IMG/VR virus record: IMGVR_UViG_3300013936_000289
Span: 280,064-344,063 of that record
DNA from: a virus
Lineage: Duplodnaviria; Heunggongvirae; Uroviricota; Caudoviricetes
Strand: one strand, 5' to 3'
Length of the DNA: 64,000 bases
Shown here: in pieces, positions 4,446 to 48,832 of the stretch
Numbering within the stretch: position 1 is the stretch's first letter
Layout: the number at the start of each line of letters is the position of its first letter
Translations under genes and position numbers: made by a program
Notes under the pieces: generated by a model
The model's database searches: none
What the model was told of the DNA's origin: nothing
The model's input: only the letters and a program-made list of their open reading frames with translations

Positions 4446-4586
4446 AAATAAAAAATTAAGGTTTATACTCTGTGAGAACCTTATAACTCAGTACCAATAC
4501 GATGGTCTCCAAGACTTTCCACTAAAAATATTTAATGTTCTTGTAGTTACGATTCTATATAATTAAATATAGACTATTAAAATTTG

Positions 4587-4656
4587 TTCCTGTCTACGGA
4601 ATTAAACCGTAACCTTCACTTTTCAAGAGAAAATGCTTTCGTTACAACAAACAGGA
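4587..4656 (-). tRNA. degenerate tRNA-like gene, probable anticodon CTT (Lys)
   Basis: TCCTGTT/GACAGGA acceptor, TACGG-TTTAATT-CCGTA T arm, 6-bp anticodon stem with CTCTTGA loop, shortened D arm. Confidence 0.5.
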
Positions 4657-4778
4657 TGCAGTGTTTTATTGTACAATTATTATCACTGTCATTCATATTT
4701 CCTCATTTATAATATTACTTTATAGATACACAATCGCGAACAGTTATCCATATTCATAAAATAAATGCATCATACTAG

Positions 4779-4851
4779 TAGCGGGAGTGTGACTCGAACA
4801 CACGACCTCAGGGTTATGAGCCCTGCAAGCTACCAACTGCTCCATCCCGCA
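4779..4851 (-). tRNA. tRNA-fMet(CAT), copy 1
   Basis: CAGGG-CTCATAA-CCCTG with three G:C pairs, 1:72 mismatch. Confidence 0.92.
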
Positions 4852-4879
4852 ATATAAAAACATAAAAATAATAATGAAT

Positions 4880-5180
4880 TCATAGATGGATTCCTGACTA
4901 CCATCAAACCCTATTACATATTAAGCACATTATTCAGTCACGACAAGTTAGTTCATGACGCTAACTCCTAAATGTCGGAAGGATTGATTACCTTCAAAGG
5001 CTACAAGCATCATATACCATTCTACGATTTGACCTTTCTTACGTCACTCATGGTTGGCCAACCATGGCTATTTTAACCTTATGTTTCTTAATATTGATTA
5101 CTCTAAATCATATCTTTTCAGATATAACCTAAATGCCTTATCCACTGCTAACAGATTATTCAGCAATATAAAAACATTAT
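4880..5180 (-). ncRNA. candidate structured ncRNA between tRNA-Thr and tRNA-fMet
   Basis: No convincing ORF, locally raised GC, hairpins such as CATGGTTGG/CCAACCATG. Confidence 0.35.
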
Positions 5181-5192
5181 TAAGTTATGTTG

Positions 5193-5265
5193 AGCTGAAT
5201 GTCGGATTCGAACCAACGACCTACGCATTACAAGTGCGTCGCACTACCAACTGTGCTAATCCAGC
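5193..5265 (-). tRNA. tRNA-Thr(TGT)
   Basis: ACGCA-CTTGTAA-TGCGT anticodon arm, canonical D and T arms. Confidence 0.93.
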
Positions 5266-5346
5266 ATAAATTATTTCAACTTATTATTTATCTAATTTAT
5301 TTTTGAAATTGATAATAAAATAAGAAAATATTTTATATTATTATTG

Positions 5347-5427
5347 TACTCCTACTCGGACTCGAACCGAGACGTAATTAAACCTAGATCCTTAATCTAG
5401 TGGCTAGACCAATTCGCCTATAGGAGT
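5347..5427 (-). tRNA. tRNA-Leu(AAG)
   Basis: ACTCCTA/TAGGAGT acceptor, CTAGA-TTAAGGA-TCTAG anticodon arm, variable arm, A73. Confidence 0.88.
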
Positions 5428-5504
5428 ATTTAAAATTAATTTCATAAAGAAACTTTTTAATTTAATAACGTAAATTTAAAATCTTGTTTATTTTTAACTA
5501 TTTT

Positions 5505-6500
5505 TTATTTAAAAGTTTTTCTTCCTCTTATATAACCATTATTTATATATTCATCATATAATTCTGTTCTAATCATATGATTCTCTTTTTCATTATGAAC
5601 CCATACATAAGTATAATTTTTCAAATCTAATTTTGGATTATAACCATCATATAATTTAATAAAATCAGTACCATATGTATTTATTACATAATCTAAATAT
5701 GGTTTTATATCATCTTTATATAAAACTTTTACATCCGGATTCTAGTTTTCTTTTAATTTCCACTAATCTGTAGAATATCCTTTTATTTCTATTATCCCGT
5801 CATCTGTTATAAAATCAGGATAATATGAATGAACTTCATTATTCCAAATATAAGACCTTTTTTCTTTACAACGTTCTATATTTAAATTATGATCTTTATA
5901 ATAAACAAGAAATGCTAATTCCCATGAACTATCACAATGAATTCCTTTATACCATCCTTGTTTGCCTCTTCCAGAACCTTCTCGATAACCACCAGTATGT
6001 GCAGATAAATATTTGTGTTTACATTCTTTTGAACAATATGTTCTTCCTCTAATATTGCGTATATCAAACACAGAAAAATCTTTATTACAATATTTGCACT
6101 AATATATTTTTCTTGAACGTTCAGCAGCTATCTAACATTTAATAGAATTTTTTACACTAATAGATGTTTTCTTTTTTGATTCTTCTGTTCTTTTTGCTCT
6201 ATGTGAATTGCCATATGCAGTTGCACAATATCTATTACAAAATCTTCCAGAACCATAATAACCATCTATTACTTTACCACAATTCTCACAATATAAAACT
6301 TTACTTTCTTCAAATTGTTTCTATTGTAATAAATAATCATTCTTTATCTTATTATAATCTATATTACGTTTTCTAAATAATCGTAATAAAGTATTTCCAG
6401 ATTTATTATATTTCTTATCAACTGCTTTTAAAGAATAATTACAATTTCTATATTCCTATATTAATTCGTCATCTGATAAAAATTCTAAATTCTATTTCAT
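5505..6500 (-). CDS. free-standing PD-(D/E)XK (TnsA-like) putative homing endonuclease with Zn fingers, 331 aa (code 15)
   Basis: CENCGK..YGSGRFC Zn-finger; DSSWELAF...YYPDF...IIEIKG nuclease motif; joined across TAGs; starts 12 nt after tRNA-Glu. Confidence 0.75.
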
Positions 6501-6512
6501 ATTATTGATTAG

Positions 6513-6584
6513 TAGTGGGTAGGAGAGTCGAACTCCTGTTTAGAGAATGAAAATCTCTAGTACTAACCGCTATACGAACCCACC
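6513..6584 (-). tRNA. tRNA-Glu(TTC)
   Basis: AGAGA-TTTTCAT-TCTCT anticodon arm, canonical cloverleaf. Confidence 0.93.
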
Positions 6585-6684
6585 AGTTAATTTGCGTATC
6601 TTAATTATTTTCAATTCATAATTATTATATGTAATCTTTATAGTAAAGTCTATATATTTATCAAAAATATTTTCAAAATATTTG

Positions 6685-6788
6685 TGGGAACAACAGGATT
6701 CGAACACTGTGAAGCAAGATCATTTCAACCGATTTGCAAATGCACTCTACTTACCGTAGAGTTCTCATACCAACGAGAAGATATTCCC
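6685..6788 (-). ncRNA. 104-nt non-canonical tRNA-like RNA
   Basis: GGGAATA/TGTTCCC acceptor, D arm TTCTC-GTTGGTAT-GAGAA, T-loop TTCGAAT with bulged stem; no canonical 7-nt anticodon loop at the standard position. Confidence 0.55.
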
Positions 6789-6932
6789 AAATATTAAAAA
6801 ATTACCGTATATAAGAAGTTGCTTAGCCAACATCCATTATAATTTCCCTTATTGAAATATATATTAACCACGTGTATTAACATACTTCGTACAGTTACTA
6901 AAACCGCCTTTTTCTAAGAAGGCTCATGACGT

Positions 6933-7589
6933 TTATGGTAATTTATTTATATATTCTTTTAATTCTTTTGATTTATATGGTAAATCATATTTTTTACACC
7001 ATTTTTTAATGGCATTTCCTGTAATACCATATAATCTACCAATATTTTCAAATGTAATATATTTCTTAAATAATTGTATTAATTCTTCTTTTGTAGGAAT
7101 TGTATAATTTTTAATTGGTTCTATTTTTTCAACTAATTTTTTATAATCATTATTCCTATTTATAGAATCAAATTTAAATTTATTTAATAAAATATTAACA
7201 TTTTCTTCATCTTTTATAATTTCAGTTGGGCATTTTATTATATTAGCATGTATTTCTCTATGACAATTTGCGCATACTAAAATACATTTATCTAATTCTA
7301 ATTTAACATCATTCCATCCATGTGTATAACCTGCATATCCTATTCCAAACTCTTTTTTATTAGGATCTATATGGTGAAATTCTAATGCAGATATACATTT
7401 ATTATATCCACAACATTGACATTTATTTCCTTTATATGCAACTGATAATAATTTTAAATGTTCTCGACGTCGCTATACATATTCTGTCTAACATTTATTA
7501 CATACCCAATGTATTTTATTATTATATGTATATAAAGAAAATAATGTATTACCATGAATATGGCATATACGACATTCTTTTTCTCTCAT
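6933..7589 (-). CDS. HNH endonuclease with C-terminal HTH, 218 aa (code 15)
   Basis: CQCCGYNKCISALEFHHIDP...CILVCANCHREIH; two TAGs; starts 5 nt after interrupted tRNA-Asn. Confidence 0.85.
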
Positions 7590-7594
7590 ATTTG

Positions 7595-7809
7595 CGCTTC
7601 GAGTAGGACTCGAACCTACGACTTTCTGATTAGCTACATAAATTGGATTCGAACCAACTAAACTTTCAGCGATTTAGATTTATTACTATAATAGTTATAA
7701 ATCAATATTGCGTCCGCAAGTCTGATACCTAACAGCATTATGTAGTTTAATTTAATCAGGTTGTTTCCTGTATACAGTCAGACGTTCTAACCAACTGAAC
7801 TATCGAAGC
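7595..7809 (-). tRNA. tRNA-Asn(GTT) interrupted by a 141-nt insert (7633-7773) in the anticodon
   Basis: 5' exon GCTTCGATAGTTCAGTTGGTTAGAACGTCTGACTGT plus 3' exon TAATCAGAAAGTCGTAGGTTCGAGTCCTACTCGAAGCG gives a perfect 74-nt cloverleaf with the same anticodon arm as the intact Asn at 13125. Confidence 0.85.
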
Positions 7810-8144
7810 AAAATTTGAATAGTTTATCTACGGACACTATTCTTTTTATTCTAATATTCAGGCGTATACTTTACCGAGAAAACATATACTTCCTATATCA
7901 TGAAGTTTATTTTAATGGAACTACATATCATGATTAAAACCATATTCAACTCCTGAAACTAATTATCAATAGATTAAAATAATCTTTCAGTCTCTCTTAA
8001 ATATAAGGTTAAATTACTTATATTCATAATTATTTTTTAAATCTATTTATTTATAATTTAAATCAGCATATCATTACTAAAAGAAATAATTAAAACTTTT
8101 AATAATGGTCCGGACAATGCTATACTACTAACTCTCGTTATATA

Positions 8145-8441
8145 TTAAAAATGTAGATAAAATATAGATAATATTGAATAACATATTTTTCTGAATAATG
8201 TTTCATTATCTAAATCCACATCTTTTGTCTATTCCCTTTTTATATGCAAATCATAAAGAAGATTATGTGATCTCCATTCATTTATTAAACTATACATACT
8301 CCTTTTATGAATAACATAAGTTTTATCACATTTTTCACGTATACTATTAATAACACATTTCATGTTTTTAATAGATTTTATTTTATAACTATCAATTATT
8401 TTCACGTCTTCCTAACTGATAATTACTTCAGGATTAATCAT
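8145..8441 (-). CDS. hypothetical protein, 98 aa (code 15)
   Basis: Manual translation MINPEVIIS(Q)EDVKIID...EWRSHNLLYDLHIKRE(Q)TKDVDLD. Confidence 0.6.
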
Positions 8442-8486
8442 ATATAAAAATTAATTGTTTCATATATTTATCTTTAATCCATTATG

Positions 8487-8560
8487 TGATTCTGGTGAGG
8501 ATCAAACTCACGACCCGTGCTTTAGAAGAGCACTGCTCTGTTCAACTGAGCTACAGAACC
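8487..8560 (-). tRNA. tRNA-Arg(TCT)
   Basis: GTGCT-CTTCTAA-AGCAC; T-loop variant TTTGATC. Confidence 0.9.
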
Positions 8561-8756
8561 ATTCACCAAAATTATAAAAATCAGAAGTCATTTATTTTTA
8601 AGTATTTGAGTTTTCTTTTTCTAGTAAACATTATCATAATTATATATGTTTGCTGTATTGACTTCCATCATCATAAATAAACTTTCATAAACACTTATAT
8701 TTCTTACTAATTAAAGTCTCATCATAAGTCAAATACTTTAATTCATTTACAATTTG

Positions 8757-8830
8757 TACTACAGGAGGGACTTGAACCCCCGACCGCCAAGGTATAAGCT
8801 TGGAACTCTAACCGACTGAGTTACTGTAGT
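8757..8830 (-). tRNA. tRNA-Ile(TAT)
   Basis: CCAAG-CTTATAC-CTTGG anticodon arm, canonical cloverleaf, A73. Confidence 0.88.
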
Positions 8831-8922
8831 GTAATTTTTAAACTCTTATATTATATTCAATTTATAAGTAAATGTTTATATTTTTTAATAAATTAATTTT
8901 AGATATACTAATCAAGTTATAG

Positions 8923-8995
8923 TGTTCCGTACGAGACTCGAACTCGTTACCCCGATATTAAAAGTATCGTGCTCTGCCAGATGAGCTAACGGAAC
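8923..8995 (-). tRNA. tRNA-Lys(TTT)
   Basis: CGATA-CTTTTAA-TATCG. Confidence 0.93.
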
Positions 8996-9184
8996 AACTC
9001 TATATTTTAATTTACATAACTATTTTAATTACATTAAAAAGATACATCTTTTATTTTTATTTGTAATTAAAAAATATTTTATAAATTATTTTCTTTCATA
9101 TTTCAAAGAACTAAATTCATAATCTTATATGAATATAATATTTAAAAGTTTATATTATTAACAACTTTTTTATTAAATATTTGT

Positions 9185-9256
9185 TGGGTGGGTGAGACTT
9201 GAACTCACGACTTCATCCTTATCAGGGATGCGCTCTAACCATCTGAACTACCACCC
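9185..9256 (-). tRNA. tRNA-Ile(GAT)
   Basis: CATCC-CTGATAA-GGATG. Confidence 0.92.
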
Positions 9257-9262
9257 AAAATT

Positions 9263-9530
9263 AAACAAGTAGATTTACGAGACACAGACTTTTTCACCCT
9301 TTATATAAAGGAATACTCGCTATTAGGCACTTGCGCTGTTTTACGAAATTGTTGTGTGTCAACTTATGGCTTCTTACGAAATCTGCTGCTCTTCACATCT
9401 ATGAACTAATGTTCAAACCAATTCCTTTCAATAATTGACCTGTAACCCTTATCAGTTCTTCTGTCTATAAATTAGCTAGCATATAATTATAAACTTACTC
9501 ATTATTCTACTTGGAAGTCTATACTTGTTT
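9263..9530 (-). ncRNA. candidate ~270-nt structured ncRNA
   Basis: Closing helix AAACAAGTA/TACTTGTTT, internal long-range pairs AGATTT/AAATCT and GACACA/TGTGTC, no ORF. Confidence 0.5.
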
Positions 9531-9589
9531 ATATCATTATTAGATAATATACGACATTAAAACTGTAAAGTATATTTCTAATAATTATT

Positions 9590-10456
9590 TTATAATTTAT
9601 ATAAATCTGTTTCTTTATGTTCTAGTATTAATTTAACATTATATCCTAATTTTATATATTCATTAAATTTATCTTTCATATTCTAAATATCTAATGTATA
9701 ATTAGATTTTACTTCAACTAATAAATTTTTATTTGAAATATAAAAATCTGGTATTGCGCATCTATATTTCTATTTAATAGAATCATAATATTTTATTCTC
9801 TTACATTCAACATCATAATCAATTTGTTTTGAATCTAAATATAATGCATAATCTAATTCATATGTACTTCGTAAATATACTTTTTTATTATTCCATGTAA
9901 TATGATAGCAATCTTTACCTAATGTATGTGTGGGTCCTTTTAATTTACCATGTAAATATGATACTGTTGTTGATTCACTAAAATGTCGTATAGGAAAATT
10001 ATATGATTTAAATAGATGTAATAAAGTTTCAGAATTATTTATATATTTTTTACAATTATATTTAATATAAATATCTTTTGGTGATAATTGATTAATTACA
10101 TATTCAGTATATAATAAATCTTTAACTTTATTATATTCATCAACAAATTTTTTTGTATATAATGTATTAATATTTAATCCAAATGGTATTAATTTATTAA
10201 ACCATTTTGATGACTAATGTTTTGATATTTCAGGGTTTTCATTATTTAACTATAATGTACCGCAAAAATATTTTTTAATTTTTATATCATTTTTTATATT
10301 ATAATACCTTTTTAATGACTCTGATATTTTTTCTTTTGTTTCGTTAGATATTTTCCTATGTTTATTTGTATATGCACATCTACAACTTCCACAACAAAAT
10401 CGTCCAGAACCATAAATAGGTTTAATATAATATTTCCCACAATTTTCGCAATTCAT
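9590..10456 (-). CDS. free-standing PD-(D/E)XK (TnsA-like) putative homing endonuclease, 288 aa (code 15)
   Basis: MNCENCGK..YGSGRFC Zn finger; LRSTYELDYA...AIPDFY...LVEVKS; joined across TAGs; follows interrupted tRNA-Phe. Confidence 0.75.
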
Positions 10457-10508
10457 AATAAAATTAATTTTATTTATTCGAACTGTATATATGATTTTTC
10501 AGTTAAAG

Positions 10509-10669
10509 TGGACCCTTGTGGAATCGAACCACAACCCCTGGATTGTCTCTATAATTAGAGTCGAACTAATAATTTTATATCCATAAAATATAATATATAG
10601 AGATTAATTTTATACAGTTTATTCTGTTAATTCAGTCCAATGTACAGGCACCAGCCATACGCAAGGTCC
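10509..10669 (-). tRNA. tRNA-Phe(GAA) interrupted by an 86-nt insert (10545-10630) in the anticodon loop
   Basis: GGACCTT/AGGGTCC acceptor; TTGGA-CTGAA|AA-TCCAG after removing insert; TGTGG-TTCGATT-CCACA T arm. Confidence 0.82.
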
Positions 10670-10678
10670 ATTTAATAG

Positions 10679-10751
10679 TAGCGGGAGTGTGACTCGAACA
10701 CACGACCTTCGGGTTATGAGCCAGACAAGCTACCAACTGCTCCATCCCGCA
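10679..10751 (-). tRNA. tRNA-fMet(CAT), copy 2
   Basis: Identical to copy 1 except anticodon stem and variable region (TCTGG/CCCGA). Confidence 0.88.
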
Positions 10752-10791
10752 ATATAATATTTTTATTATTTTTAAATATTCACTAAAATCG

Positions 10792-10862
10792 TTGGACTAC
10801 CGGGATTCGGACCCAGTCTAGAAGAACCAAAATCTTCTGTACTACCATTATACTATAGTCCA
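10792..10862 (-). tRNA. tRNA-Gln(TTG)
   Basis: GAAGA-TTTTGGT-TCTTC; T-loop variant TCCGAAT. Confidence 0.9.
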
Positions 10863-10896
10863 ATGTTTCAATAAACATATCTAATAATATTCATAG

Positions 10897-11132
10897 CGGT
10901 TATAAATGGATTCGAACCATTAATCTCCCTCGACCCAGGGTATTCTATGAGTAAACGATAATTATTGTATTCTCTACTTACTCATAATATAAAAACTAAT
11001 AACGGTAAAAGAGCTTAAGAATAATACCATTTGATCCGCAAACATCTCATATTAGTTTTTATATTACTTCCAATAGATATTCATGTCAATTACCAGTTAT
11101 TAACTACTCCACCTATTTTGAACTATATAACC
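10897..11132 (-). ncRNA. 236-nt tRNA-like RNA with multi-helix insertion
   Basis: GGTTATA/TATAACC acceptor, AATGG-TTCGAAT-CCATT T arm, D-like arm; internal helices ATAAAAACTAATA/TATTAGTTTTTAT and ATGAGTAA/TTACTCAT. Confidence 0.6.
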
Positions 11133-11141
11133 AAATTTTTG

Positions 11142-11216
11142 CGGTGCGTACGGAACTCGAATCCGTGACCTCTACAGTGACAGTGTAGCATTCTGACCAA
11201 ACTGAACTAACGCACC
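11142..11216 (-). tRNA. tRNA-Asp(GTC)
   Basis: CTACA-CTGTCAC-TGTAG, G73. Confidence 0.93.
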
Positions 11217-11238
11217 ATATCTTAACTTACATAACTAA

Positions 11239-11655
11239 TTATCTTTCTGGATGATAATAATCTTTCCAATTATTAAATGTATTTTTAATAGATAAACTTT
11301 GTAAATAATCTATTGAATAGCATTTATTCGTATGTATCATTCTATGATGATTTGGACATACAATAATTAAATTAGAAATATCATCAGTTCCACCATTAGA
11401 TTTTTCTATTATATGATGAATATCACAAGTAGATTCATTCCACCCACATATTGCACATCCTATTTTTGAACGTTTCAATATTTTAGATATTGTTCTTTTA
11501 GAACAATCTAATATACTATTTAATTCATTTTCTTTAGAATGTTTACGTTTTTGTTTACATTCATCACATTTTATATGTCTATCTTTTCTAAAAGTCTTAG
11601 TAGAATAAAACTTTTTATTACAAGATTCACATATATATTCTTTTAATTCTGACAT
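11239..11655 (-). CDS. HNH endonuclease, 138 aa (true start MSELKEY)
   Basis: CAICGWNESTCDIHHII...NLIIVCPNHHRMIH; the longer ORF-track start would run through tRNA-Tyr. Confidence 0.85.
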   Translation of the reverse strand: MSELKEYICESCNKKFYSTKTFRKDRHIKCDECKQKRKHSKENELNSILDCSKRTISKILKRSKIGCAICGWNESTCDIHHIIEKSNGGTDDISNLIIVCPNHHRMIHTNKCYSIDYLQSLSIKNTFNNWKDYYHPER

Positions 11656-11660
11656 ATTTG

Positions 11661-11743
11661 TGGGTGAGGTAGGACTCGAACCTACGAAGTCAAATGACAG
11701 CTGATTTACAGTCAGCCCCCTTTGCCACTCGGGACACTCACCC
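11661..11743 (-). tRNA. tRNA-Tyr(GTA)
   Basis: GCTGA-CTGTAAA-TCAGC, long variable arm, A73. Confidence 0.93.
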
Positions 11744-11748
11744 AAAAT

Positions 11749-11855
11749 TAATGAAATATACAAAAGGAATTGAACCTTTTAATACTCTTATAGCTTACCG
11801 GCTTTACGGTATTTTAATAGCACGCCCTTGCCCTGTGGGATAATATATTTCATTA
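11749..11855 (-). ncRNA. tRNA-like RNA with extended acceptor helix
   Basis: TAATGAAATATA/TATATTTCATTA terminal helix, AAAGG-TTCAATT-CCTTT T arm, CCC/GGG D-like arm, TACCG/CGGTA hairpin. Confidence 0.45.
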
Positions 11856-12073
11856 AATTTTACCTGAAACATTCACCGCTGCCCGTTCACCTATAGGATT
11901 TAAAATAGGTTCTAACCAGAATGAAATTAACATACGCCTTCAAATATATTTTATATTTAGACTTAATAATATATTCTACATGTTTACTTTAATTCATTTA
12001 TTTAATAAGTAATTAAGTATATTGTCTAATAATATAGTTTAATCCTTATTACTGTAATGTTTCACACCTAGCG

Positions 12074-12147
12074 TGGAGATAATGGTACTCGAAACCATGA
12101 CCCTCTGCGTGCAAAGCAGATGCTCTAGCCAACTGAGCTATACCCCC
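12074..12147 (-). tRNA. tRNA-Ala(TGC)
   Basis: TCTGC-TTTGCAC-GCAGA, G3:U70. Confidence 0.93.
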
Positions 12148-12203
12148 AATTTATAGAGATTTAGATAATACCCTATAAAATTCTTTTGAGTTAAAAACAA
12201 TAT

Positions 12204-12417
12204 TTAGATATTTAACTTAATAACATATATAAATTTTATAATATATATGAAGTTAACCTTAAAAACTATATATTAACTATATAGAAAAATAATTATCTAA
12301 ATCTTATCTTTTTAAAAATATGAATTTATTTAATTTTTACATACATAATTTATAAATTAAATTCTTCTAACGACTCAATTCATAAATACTCAATATATAA
12401 AACATAAATATCTTCAT
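12204..12417 (-). repeat. dispersed ~213-bp repeat, copy 1 (copy 2 at 60711-60923, +)
   Basis: Reverse complement aligns through long shared blocks such as TTTAAAAAGATAAGATTTAGATAATTAT and ATATGTTATTAAGTTAAATATCTAA. Confidence 0.85.
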
Positions 12418-12486
12418 ATTTTATGATTCAATATTTATATTGAATAAACATATAAAAGTCTATTTAAATTATAAATATTTTTATTA

Positions 12487-12691
12487 GTTGTCTTGATGGA
12501 TTCGAACACACCTTTATCCTTACAATACATACTTCAATTTTCGCTTCACTAATCATCTTTCACTCCAGTTCCATTTTGCACACTGCACTCGCAGTTAATG
12601 CTCCTTTCCCCTTATCTATATTTCATTTTCATACCTCGTTACTTCTCTTTTCTTTAGGACCATAGTAATACCATGTCTATACGAAAGACAA
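12487..12691 (-). ncRNA. 205-nt tRNA-like RNA with purine-rich insertion
   Basis: TTGTCTT/AAGACAA acceptor, GTA/TAC D stem, bulged T arm GGTGTG-TTCGAAT-CCATC as in the 6685 element. Confidence 0.5.
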
Positions 12692-12701
12692 ACCCAAAAG
12701 G

Positions 12702-12774
12702 TAGATGGTAAGAGATTCGAACTCCTGACAGCTCGGATGTAAGCCGAGAACTCTAACCACTGAGTTAACCATCT
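12702..12774 (-). tRNA. tRNA-Val(TAC)
   Basis: CTCGG-CTTACAT-CCGAG. Confidence 0.93.
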
Positions 12775-13124
12775 AAATCTAGTATACTGCTTTCACAAGT
12801 GGTATACTATAATAAAAATTTAATTTAAATTAAAAATAAGATTAAATAACTAACAGGGTGGAGTTGCACTTCCCTTACTTCATAGTTGCAATACGCAGTG
12901 ATGAACCCTTCTTTTTAAGAAATAAAAGAAATAGCGCTGTTTTTATTTCTTAAATTGTTTAACCCTTACTTTAACGTAAGACTTCATTTACCGTTAAACT
13001 ACGTTATTATTTAATCAATCATCAAAAAACATATTCAGAAACATTATATATCTCCGCCTTGACGGTATCATCTGAATTTGAAAGGTACGAGCCTTCATAT
13101 ATAAAATGTTATGTTTTTAACTTG

Positions 13125-13195
13125 CGGGTACTGAGGGAATCGAACCCACGTCTTCTGATTAACAGTCAGATGCTTGACCTTCCAGCTAAATACCC
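13125..13195 (-). tRNA. tRNA-Asn(GTT), uninterrupted
   Basis: TCTGA-CTGTTAA-TCAGA, G73. Confidence 0.92.
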
Positions 13196-13849
13196 AAATA
13201 TAACTTTAAAGTCAGTTAACTACACATCCGACCGTTACAGTGACACTTCTTATTCTTATAAGATTTATGTATATAACCAAACATTAGCTTGAGTCGTTCA
13301 TTTGTTCTATTCAGCTCGTGGAGATATATCTTTTTGAAAGCAATAGCAATATTAAAAGGACTTTAATATTCTATATATATCTCCTGATGCACTTTGGACA
13401 AGCAGTCTAATATAAGAAATCTTATATAGAGCCTGATATTTTTCAATCATATTTTTCTTTGGCAGCATCATTATTATAAATTCATATAGTTATGTTTGTT
13501 TCCTCACATAAACAATAATGAAATTATTTATGAAGTTACTTTTAAATTTGAAGTTCAATATTATATCTGATTAACTTCTCAGTAACATTAAACATAACAT
13601 ATATTATATGAATAATTTCTATATTTGTCTATCAAAATTTCAAAGAACTTTATTTTTTAATTACAATTCAAAGATACATCTTTATTTTGAATTAAAAAAT
13701 ATTCTAAGAAAAATTTTCAAAAAATTATTTTCTTATTTTGTTATCAATATTTCAAAGAACAATTTTTGTTTGTTATTTTATTAACAATACAAAGATACAT
13801 AATATATTTCAAATAAAAAAATTTGTCTGATAAAAAATCAAAAATATTT

Positions 13850-14098
13850 TTATTTAATCTTTATTATAGTATCATTATCTATAGAACGTCTAATCCATCT
13901 CATAAGAATAAGTGCTCTATCATAATGTGGTAAGAATGCTGCTGTTTCACCTACATCATGTTTATCTGATAAATCTATTTCTATCTAATATATATGATTA
14001 TCATCTGATGTAATGTTATAAACAACAATACCACCTGAATTTACACAAACAATGTCTGCTGTACCCTTAACTAAAGATTTTAAATTAATCTTTTCCAT
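13850..14098 (-). CDS. hypothetical protein, 82 aa (code 15)
   Basis: MEKINLKSLVKGTADIVCVNSGG...HIY(Q)IEIDLSDKHDVGETA...LMRWIRRSID. Confidence 0.7.
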
Positions 14099-14123
14099 TT
14101 TTCTAATTTAATTTATTTTTTAG

Positions 14124-14198
14124 TTGGGGTGGTGGGAGTTGAACCCACTACCAGTATTCTTAATAAGAATACCACTCTGACCGTTGAGTTACACCCCA
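14124..14198 (-). tRNA. atypical tRNA with extended anticodon arm (6-bp stem, TTATTAA loop; apparent anticodon ATT)
   Basis: TGGGGTG/CACCCCA acceptor, canonical D and T arms, anticodon arm 2 nt longer than standard. Confidence 0.65.
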
Positions 14199-14390
14199 CT
14201 ATGGAGTGTTCCTAAATATAATACAACAATATATCATTAAACATATAGGAACATGATTTCTTATGTCAATCCTATATATAATAATGTATAATATAAGATC
14301 AACAATTTATAACTGTATTCGATGCTTATGTATATGTCGTATTAACTTTGTCATATTATTCTTATTTTATTTGTATAAATTTTTAATTTG

Positions 14391-14481
14391 CACACAGAGA
14401 AGGATTCGAACCCTCGAACAGTACATATATACCGTTATTGGTTTTGGAGACCAACTGCATCAACCACTCGCACATCTGTGT
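14391..14481 (-). tRNA. type-II (Ser-like body) tRNA with Trp anticodon CCA
   Basis: ACACAGA/TCTGTGT acceptor, G73, TTGGT-CTCCAAA-ACCAA, ~20-nt variable hairpin. Confidence 0.85.
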
Positions 14482-14797
14482 ATTTCTATAATAAATGAAA
14501 AAAATCTTGAAACTCTCTGTTTATTGCAGAATGTTTCAAGATTTAAAATATATTAATAGTTTTACTATTATTTCTTTATTTATAAACGTATTAACTAATC
14601 ACAATATCTCGTAACATATCTGCATAACAATCTTGTTCATACCAATTAAATGAATCGGCATAAATATCAACGTTATTTTTATATATGTTATTAAATTGCT
14701 TCATAGTTTTTTTGTTTTTAAAAATTATTTCTTTATTATATATATCTAAATTTTTTTCAAAAGTCTCTCATTTTTGAAACTTTTTTTCAAAAAAATA

Positions 14798-47575: not shown

Positions 47576-48832
47576 ATGGCAGAAAAAAAGAAAGATACAA
47601 ATAAAAAAGAAAATAAGTGTTCATTTTGTGGTAAGACGAAAGACCAAGTTGCATTACTTTTTAATGGTGAATATGGAAGTATTTGTAATGAATGTTGTGA
47701 CCAGATTTACAATATGAATTTGAGTATAGTAAATCATAATACACAGTTTTTACCACCAGATGATAATTTTCATAAGGATGATGTAAAAAAACCTACAGAG
47801 ATTAAAGAATTTTTGGATCAATATGTAATTGGTCAGGATAAAGCGAAACAAAGGTTAGCAGTTGCAGTTTATAATCATTATAAGAGAATTAAACAAAAAG
47901 GATTTGATGATGTAGAGATTGAGAAGAGTAACTGTATACTTTTGGGAGACACTGGTACTGGTAAAACACTTTTGGTTAAGTCTATTGCTAAAATGTTAGA
48001 TGTACCAATTAGTATAGTGGATTCTAATTCTATCACCGAAGCAGGATACGTTGGTGATGATGTTGAGACTGCAATCACAAGACTTCTCCAAGCATGTGAT
48101 TATGATGTTAAGAAAGCAGAACACGGAATAGTATTTCTTGATGAGATTGATAAGATTGCAAGGAAATCCGGAGGAAATCCATCTATAACAAGAGATGTTT
48201 CAGGTGAAGGCGTTCAACAAGCATTACTTAAAATAATTGAAGGTTCTGTTGTAAATGTTCCTCCAAAGGGAGGAAGAAAACACCCGGATGCTAAAATGGT
48301 AGAGGTTGATACAAAAAATATTTTATTTATTTGTGGTGGTGCTTTTGTTGGTTTGAATAAAATTATAGAGAGACGAGTTAATAAATCTACATTAGGATTT
48401 GTATCAAAGGATAAGAAATATTTTTCTGATAATAAAGAAAACATATTTAAATATGTAAATGCGGAAGATTTAAAGAATTATGGTTTGATTCCTGAATTAA
48501 TTGGTAGACTTCCTATTATTACATATCTTAATCCTTTAACTGAAGATGATTTGAAGAGAATTCTTACAGAACCGAAAAATGCTATTATTAAACAATTTAA
48601 GAAGTTGTTTAAATTAGATGGTATTGAACTTATAATAGATGATGAAGTTTATGATTATATAGTTAAGTTATCCATTAAGAATAAATTAGGCGCTAGGGGG
48701 TTAAGAGGAATAGTAGAGAATCTTATGGATGATGCAATGTATAATTTACCGGCGTCTAATGAAAAAGAATTTCATATAACTATAGAATATGCGAAAGAAA
48801 AATTAAAAGATTATGAAAATTCTTATGAATAA
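47576..48832 (+). CDS. clpX: ATP-dependent Clp protease ATPase ClpX
   Basis: CSFCGK..CNECC Zn domain, [36 protein letters not shown]. Confidence 0.97.

Follow-up and report, generated by a model that had tools for sequence, protein, structure and literature searches.

The Lak megaphages of Prevotella carry a tRNA gene with anticodon CCA (hereafter tRNA(CCA)) that appears to record a natural switch of identity from serine to tryptophan, in which the anticodon and the pairs 1:72, 2:71 and 11:24 would all have changed on a serine-type body with a long variable arm. From a comparison of its sequence with host-order tRNAs, we judge it probable that the product is a type II tRNA that accepts tryptophan. 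To our knowledge, textbooks limit the long variable arm to the leucine, serine, selenocysteine and bacterial tyrosine tRNAs, tRNA-Trp is of class I in every domain, and no bacterial TrpRS is known to accept a type II tRNA. If a class II tRNA is conserved and has the complete tryptophan identity set, the boundary between the classes can be crossed by an isoacceptor family, and tRNA(CCA) occurs in all Lak megaphages and resembles tRNAs of more than 100 other phage contigs. The gene is already known in that it is listed as Trp(CCA) in the supplement of Devoto 2019, whereas the text of the 2019 preprint never contains "Trp" and does not discuss the architecture of this tRNA; our literature search found no description of a class II or long-armed tRNA-Trp or of such a group of phage tRNAs. 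New here are the comparison with tRNA-Trp and tRNA-Ser of the host order, the switched identity positions 1:72, 2:71 and 11:24 on a serine scaffold, the compensatory evolution of the variable arm within Lak, and an examination of tryptophan codons in the phage release factor RF2.

Location, anatomy and conservation of the gene

The window, by which we mean the whole 64,000-nt stretch of DNA analysed here, has a G+C content of ~26% and is, judged by sequence identity, that of a Lak-B Prevotella megaphage: a 701-bp stretch around tRNA(CCA) shares 99.4% identity with Prevotella phages Lak-B7 and Lak-B8, versus ~88% with Lak-A1, A2 and C1. ARAGORN detected 18 tRNA genes in the window (4586-14481), all encoded by the minus strand, with tRNA(CCA) last in the list and first in the direction of transcription of this array. 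The program called a 92-nt "tRNA-Trp (cca)" at 14390-14481 (minus strand), while Rfam model RF00005 matched 14391-14481 with a score of 48.6 bits (gathering score 29; E-value 2.4e-7 for the whole window), and the 7-bp acceptor stem, the D, anticodon and T arms and a T loop of UUCGAAU were all present. The 91-nt tRNA gene (anticodon CCA) of the initial annotation is therefore real and lies on the minus strand at the coordinates given there; its type II cloverleaf, long variable hairpin and G73 are confirmed, with standard pairing at 29 of 29 pairs (Table 1).

Table 1. Parts of the Lak tRNA(CCA) gene in window coordinates
Feature	Position	Strand	Remarks
Whole tRNA gene, 91 nt	14391..14481	-	Nucleotide 1 = 14481, G73 = 14391; ARAGORN, RF00005
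5' acceptor strand ACACAGA	14475..14481	-	Forms A1:U72 and C2:G71, shared with Bacteroidales tRNA-Trp
D arm, serine-type, stem UGCG/UGCA, G13.U22, loop AGUGGUUGA	14456..14472	-	Preceded by U8 G9
Anticodon arm UUGGU-CUCCAAA-ACCAA	14438..14454	-	Anticodon CCA at 14445-14447
Variable arm, 8-bp stem and 4-nt loop (20 nt)	14417..14436	-	Sole variable part among Lak lineages
T arm GAGGG-UUCGAAU-CCUUC	14399..14415	-	16/17 identical to Bacteroidales tRNA-Ser(CGA)
3' acceptor strand UCUGUGU and discriminator G73 (14391)	14391..14398	-	Sequence

The acceptor stem (ACACAGA/UCUGUGU) begins with A1:U72, C2:G71 and A3:U70, and the D stem has 4 bp, of which the last is G13.U22 and the pair 11:24 is G:C, with G26 lying between the D and anticodon arms. 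The variable region exceeds 10 nt and forms a stem-loop, as in class II tRNAs, and its stem is flanked by one unpaired U on the 5' side and one unpaired C on the 3' side. The acceptor/T branch is 7/5 (a 7-bp acceptor and a 5-bp T stem), and the 3' CCA end is not encoded. Two special types of tRNA were considered and rejected. tRNA-Sec has a UCA anticodon, an 8/5 branch and a 6-bp D stem, whereas tRNA(CCA) has CCA, a 7/5 branch and a 4-bp D stem, and a suppressor tRNA as found in recoded phages was rejected as the anticodon CCA complements no stop codon. The suppressor-type tRNAs of Lak, with anticodons CUA and UUA, are genes apart from tRNA(CCA); in Lak-B7 these two genes (L008:557-629 and L009:554-626) would read UAA (anticodon UUA) and UAG (anticodon CUA), of which the literature explains only UAG reassignment.

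A promoter scan around the gene yielded nothing above the shuffled expectation, and a search for sequencing runs that contain positions 14100-14700 listed none recorded as RNA. At 14502-14544 the window contains a perfect 12-bp inverted repeat (AAATCTTGAAAC / GTTTCAAGATTT), followed on the minus strand by a run of seven T, ~17 nt upstream of tRNA(CCA). This element resembles a terminator of the upstream gene and escaped the terminator scan, its loop exceeding 8 nt. The adjoining tRNA at 14123-14198 (minus strand) differs in its anticodon loop from one Lak lineage to another: Lak-A1, A2 and C1 have CUUAUAA (anticodon UAU, Ile), while in Lak-B a 2-nt insertion gives AAU (B7, B4) or AUU (the window, called Asn) in genomes that are ~99% identical, and Table S2 of Devoto 2019 lists both AAT and ATT.

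ARAGORN found an orthologous gene with anticodon CCA in Lak-A1, A2, C1, B4 and B7, and an exact-pattern scan of a metagenome collection added four further Lak-like contigs, also with CCA; the same kind of scan in IMG/VR, with the Lak D arm and anticodon stem, returned zero matches. The anticodon was thus CCA in all 10 Lak sequences examined, which come from humans, baboons and other metagenomes, and in Table S2 of Devoto 2019 each of the 12 complete Lak genomes has a "Trp CCA" entry for it. Across Lak-A1, A2, B4, B7, C1 and the four contigs, 71 of 71 positions outside the variable arm were invariant, although the flanks and the wider region diverge among Lak lineages (~88% identity, ~12% divergence). 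Differences in the variable arm all lie in its distal part and keep its pairing (A:U to U:A, U:G to A:U and U:A to U:G; two double-sided compensatory changes and one single-sided), a third Lak version has a 7-bp arm, and the loop reads AUAU, UAAC or UAAAA. Standard pairing was found in 100% of 115 pair cells over the four distinct Lak versions, compared with 36-54% when the register was slid; the shuffle control (37/500) is weak with only four sequences. Even so, it is clear that the tRNA is invariant while its arm covaries. We also considered whether the variable arm might act as a decoy anticodon arm, and rejected this for Lak as its loop is neither conserved nor CCA-like.

Judged from this conservation, the Lak tRNA(CCA) is real and under selection, and its anticodon is old. 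A single base (C35 versus G35) separates it from the serine anticodon CGA, which would be in keeping with a recent anticodon mutation, a sequencing error or a decaying tRNA-Ser pseudogene. The presence of CCA in every Lak copy, in the ten sequences as well as in the 12 genomes of Table S2, argues against a recent mutation or error, as does the lack of any substitution outside the variable arm against ~12% divergence around it, and this explanation is so improbable that we regard it as essentially excluded by the conservation data. The initial annotation had proposed the anticodon of related phages as a check, with orthologs bearing GGA, CGA or TGA pointing to such an accident; no such ortholog was seen.

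A serine-type body with tryptophan identity positions

The 91-nt sequence was compared by BLAST with 81 Bacteroidales genomes and the matched loci were typed with ARAGORN. The 16 best-match loci held tRNA-Ser in 11 cases, tRNA-Leu(CAA) in two and tRNA-Sec in one; one locus had tRNA-Thr and tRNA-Tyr genes, one was without a tRNA call, and one had a long-armed tRNA(CCA) on a MAG contig. No canonical tRNA-Trp was among them. As the best matches were mostly tRNA-Ser genes and included no canonical tRNA-Trp, the body of the Lak tRNA(CCA) is, on sequence, of the serine type in U8-G9, D arm, T arm and arm geometry, in agreement with what had been read from the window alone. With Bacteroidales tRNA-Ser(CGA) and tRNA-Ser(GGA) it shares U8-G9, the layout of the D arm with G13.U22 and the loop AGUGGUYGA, and G26; it further shares with Bacteroidales tRNA-Ser a long arm with one unpaired base per side, a near-identical T arm, acceptor pairs 3, 5, 6 and 7, and G73. 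It differs in having the anticodon CCA, A1:U72, C2:G71 and G11:C24 where the serine tRNAs have G1:C72, G2:C71 and C11:G24, and the anticodon of tRNA-Ser(CGA) is one base away.

Canonical tRNA-Trp of Bacteroidales, which is of class I, shares another set of features with the Lak tRNA(CCA): the anticodon CCA in the loop CUCCAAA, the GGU/ACC end of the anticodon stem, decoding of UGG, A1:U72, C2:G71, G73, and the lack of an encoded CCA end. Against this, the Lak tRNA(CCA) is of class II, with a 20-nt variable arm in place of a 5-nt loop, a serine-type D arm, G9 instead of A9, and A3:U70/C4:G69/A5:U68 where tRNA-Trp has G3-G5 pairs. The class I body of tRNA-Trp, defined by a variable loop of 4-5 nt, a type I D arm and A9, is therefore not that of the Lak gene. 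While the sequence of the anticodon arm given in the initial annotation stands, its description as Ser-like does not, since Bacteroidales tRNA-Trp has the same loop, CUCCAAA, and the same GGU/ACC end of the stem; the whole arm is also one base from that of Bacteroidales tRNA-Leu(CAA).

C11:G24 in the D stem is a determinant of E. coli tRNA-Ser. In Bacteroidales, G1:C72, G2:C71 and C11:G24 were present in 13 of 13 tRNA-Ser genes that fold as a standard cloverleaf, and the tRNA-Ser(UGA) encoded by Lak-A1 has the same three pairs. Conversely, all six canonical tRNA-Trp genes from five Bacteroidales genomes have A1:U72, C2:G71, G73 and the loop CUCCAAA. The Lak tRNA(CCA) agrees with host-order tRNA-Trp at 1:72, 2:71, 73 and the anticodon and departs from tRNA-Ser at 11:24. 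Expressed as identity sets, it has every tryptophan element (C34, C35 and A36, G73, and the host-order pairs A1:U72 and C2:G71), while from the serine set it has the long arm and G73 and lacks G1:C72, G2:C71 and C11:G24. The positions at which it departs from serine tRNA are thus, in this comparison, the identity positions. The known tryptophan identity rules include G73 and the first pair A1:U72, G73 is an antideterminant against LeuRS and TyrRS, and C2:G71 counteracts recognition by the SerRS of E. coli (PMC9976931), a role that may or may not extend to the Bacteroidales enzyme.

In alloacceptor recruitment, a tRNA body of one type carries the anticodon of another amino acid, as in the tRNA-Ser(CAG) of Candida. 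A further parallel is the mitochondrial tRNA-Thr of yeast derived from tRNA-His (PMC3113583). The Lak tRNA(CCA) differs from these cases in that the identity of its acceptor end has apparently been switched too, and in that the class boundary, from a class II to a class I isoacceptor family, has been crossed. The comparison with allo-tRNAs made in the initial annotation breaks down on structure: the allo-tRNAs and (8/4) tRNA-Ser/His described by Mukai et al. 2017 (PMC5389517) are also long-armed, occur in part in phages and have an anticodon that mismatches the body, yet their acceptor/T branch is 8/4 or 9/3, as opposed to 7/5 in Lak, and a tryptophan anticodon is not mentioned in that paper.

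Charging, decoding and competing explanations

Whole-genome checks were made on the Lak-B7 and Lak-A1 records. Both phages carry tRNAs for nearly all amino acids, and tRNA(CCA) is the only one with a tryptophan anticodon; searches of both records with PF00579 (TrpRS/TyrRS) and PF00587 (the class II core, including SerRS) found no match. In Lak-B7 (MK250026.1, 201603-201698, minus strand) and Lak-A1 (215530-215630) we also observed a 96-nt class II tRNA-like gene that scored 45.3 bits with Rfam and was not called by ARAGORN. It has a serine-like acceptor (G1:C72, G2:C71, A3:U70), A73, the unusual anticodon loop UAUGAUG (UGA with A33) and a variable region of ~25 nt, and may be the only serine-type tRNA of Lak-B, which is without the tRNA-Ser(UGA) of Lak-A1.

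TGG makes up 0.78% of codons in the long ORFs of the window, an ordinary level of use. Lak-B7 RF2 has tryptophan, encoded by TGG, aligned with four of the five tryptophans of E. coli RF2, and on this alignment UGG appears to mean tryptophan to Lak. As TGG is kept at conserved RF2 positions, a tRNA(CCA) that inserted serine would be expected to harm the phage's own proteins; this speaks against the proposal of the initial annotation that serine at UGG might serve host sabotage, since the conserved tryptophans of the phage would be hit as well. ClpX could not serve as a second test because its aligned region has no tryptophan. A Pfam scan of eight large ORFs of the window identified only ClpX and one AAA_23 protein, the former being a full-length homologue with its zinc finger at 47576-48832 (plus strand), which matched solved ClpX structures with an E-value of 1.6e-124.

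We propose that tRNA(CCA) would be transcribed as the first gene of the minus-strand array and trimmed, with its CCA end presumably added post-transcriptionally because it is not encoded. Charging with tryptophan would fall to the host TrpRS, as the phage encodes none, and is favoured by the tryptophan pairs at 1:72 and 2:71, by G11:C24 and by the identity rules (PMC9976931); UGG in phage mRNAs would then be decoded as tryptophan by the phage's only tRNA-Trp. The gene probably arose from one resembling tRNA-Ser(CGA) by a change of G35 to C, a new top of the acceptor stem and a new 11:24 pair, and these changes would have stripped SerRS determinants and installed those of TrpRS. The long arm may have been retained because a type II core relies on it. 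Of the two readings offered by the initial annotation, serine insertion at UGG or an unusual tRNA-Trp, the second is thus the better supported, as positions 1:72, 2:71 and 73 copy host-order tRNA-Trp. Several features count against it: the long arm with one unpaired base per side, the serine-type D loop and G73 form the scaffold that SerRS recognises, G9 and A3:U70 differ from host tRNA-Trp, which has G3:C70 at the latter position, some phages have the long-armed type beside a canonical tRNA-Trp, and a minority of the wider group has a serine-like acceptor end.

That scaffold is the starting point for the alternative in which host SerRS charges the tRNA through its long arm and G73 whatever the anticodon, so that serine would be inserted at UGG. 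SerRS ignores the anticodon and treats the size of the variable arm as the major identity element, and the E. coli enzyme is reported to read shape more than sequence (PMC9976931). The preponderance of tRNA-Ser among the best Bacteroidales matches, the serine-like D loop, arm geometry and T arm, the maintenance of the arm by compensatory change and the occurrence in some phages of the long-armed type beside a normal tRNA-Trp are all in line with such a missense tRNA. We nevertheless consider it unlikely, as the three serine pairs common to all 13 standard Bacteroidales tRNA-Ser genes and the Lak-A1 tRNA-Ser have been replaced, at 1:72 and 2:71 by exactly the pairs of host tRNA-Trp, and C2:G71 blocks E. 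coli SerRS (PMC9976931); substitution of serine for tryptophan at conserved, functionally important RF2 positions would damage phage proteins, and Lak, whose tRNAs cover nearly all the other amino acids, would be left without a tRNA-Trp. A compromise, in which both TrpRS and SerRS charge the tRNA and produce a low-level, possibly regulated ambiguity at UGG, would account for the combination of a tryptophan identity set with a shape that SerRS recognises, and the wider group of such genes spans tryptophan-like and serine-like acceptor ends. Removal of three separate serine determinants, however, looks like selection against serylation, so that we rate this dual identity as distinctly unlikely. 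Overall, we see a small chance that SerRS charges the Lak tRNA(CCA) fully or partly and that Lak, and possibly many phages, deliberately insert serine at UGG or keep this codon ambiguous; were this true, the gene would be a natural device for sense-codon recoding carried by viruses.

Phage tRNAs can counter host defences that target tRNA (PMC10264068, PMC11555353), and the Lak gene could accordingly have a role other than that of an adaptor, either as a regulatory RNA or by diverting a tRNA nuclease, defence sensor or synthetase of the host as a sponge or decoy. The presence of a long arm on at least two different tRNA(CCA) bodies, tryptophan-type in Collinsella and serine-type in Lak, suggests that the arm itself is selected and would fit this idea. 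We find a mainly non-decoding role improbable, given that the gene has the invariant and perfectly canonical anticodon loop, acceptor end and T loop that a tRNA active in translation should have, and that it lies in an array of ordinary tRNAs, to which it adds the only isoacceptor family otherwise absent. A tryptophan-accepting tRNA could still draw a phage-specific advantage from its arm, and we speculate that it may be a poor substrate for tRNA nucleases that recognise the body or for other host factors; because the Lak anticodon loop is identical to that of the host, any escape from defence would act through the body. The Lak tRNA(CCA) offers a simple system in which to ask whether a bacterial TrpRS tolerates a type II body and whether C2:G71 and A1:U72 suffice to exclude SerRS.

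Long-armed tRNA(CCA) genes in other phages

Related genes were sought with the pattern "GGU-CUCCAAA-ACC, 15-32 nt, GGUUCGAAUCC", which excludes class I tRNAs (gap 10 nt). It matched at least 116 IMG/VR contigs, many of them longer than 100 kb, and 21 loci in the genomes of 185,579 prokaryotic species, one genome each, mostly on MAG contigs; one of the 21 (L141) apparently lies on the same 410-kb contig as an IMG/VR match (L066), with an equal match position. By these searches, long-armed tRNA(CCA) genes would form a large phage-specific group. U72 together with G73 occurred in 79 of 96 unique long-armed tRNA(CCA) genes on phage contigs among the matches listed, and in the same contigs in 4 of 53 tRNA-Ser, 4 of 4 canonical tRNA-Trp and at most 14% of every other isoacceptor family; G73 was present in 93 of 100 long-armed genes among the matches listed. 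The tRNA(CCA) genes of other IMG/VR phages thus resemble that of Lak in their long arm, their anticodon and, mostly, in U72 and G73, and they are enriched in large phages with tRNA arrays. They differ from it in that their bodies are heterogeneous, some being of the tryptophan type with an inserted hairpin and some having serine-like acceptor ends, and the 8-bp arm of Lak is among the longest of the group.

In the genome of a Collinsella aerofaciens isolate (L138/L187), the long-armed tRNA(CCA) has a class I, tryptophan-type body and D arm, its variable loop being extended by an inserted hairpin of 11 nt, and is part of a prophage-like array of at least 11 tRNA genes, while a normal tRNA-Trp lies elsewhere on the chromosome (L185). 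A minority of the wider group keeps a serine-like acceptor end, as in Pelagibius, where a serine-like body is combined with G1:C72/G2:C71. The long arm on a tRNA with anticodon CCA therefore seems, on sequence comparison, to have arisen more than once in phages, and this repeated origin would suggest that having the arm is in itself advantageous. A further question posed by these tRNAs is why a long-armed tRNA-Trp should be favoured in phages but not in cells. In a few IMG/VR contigs (L044, L114), a long-armed tRNA(CCA) is accompanied by a canonical tRNA-Trp of class I, both with A1-C2-G3 and G73, which suggests that the two are not simply redundant. For annotation, isotype calls of such genes need to take the body and the acceptor end into account. 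The tRNA-Ser(UGA) of Lak-A1 (L147:13495-13585, minus strand) has U73 rather than the usual G73, and U73 was found in 9 of 53 phage tRNA-Ser genes among the IMG/VR loci listed.
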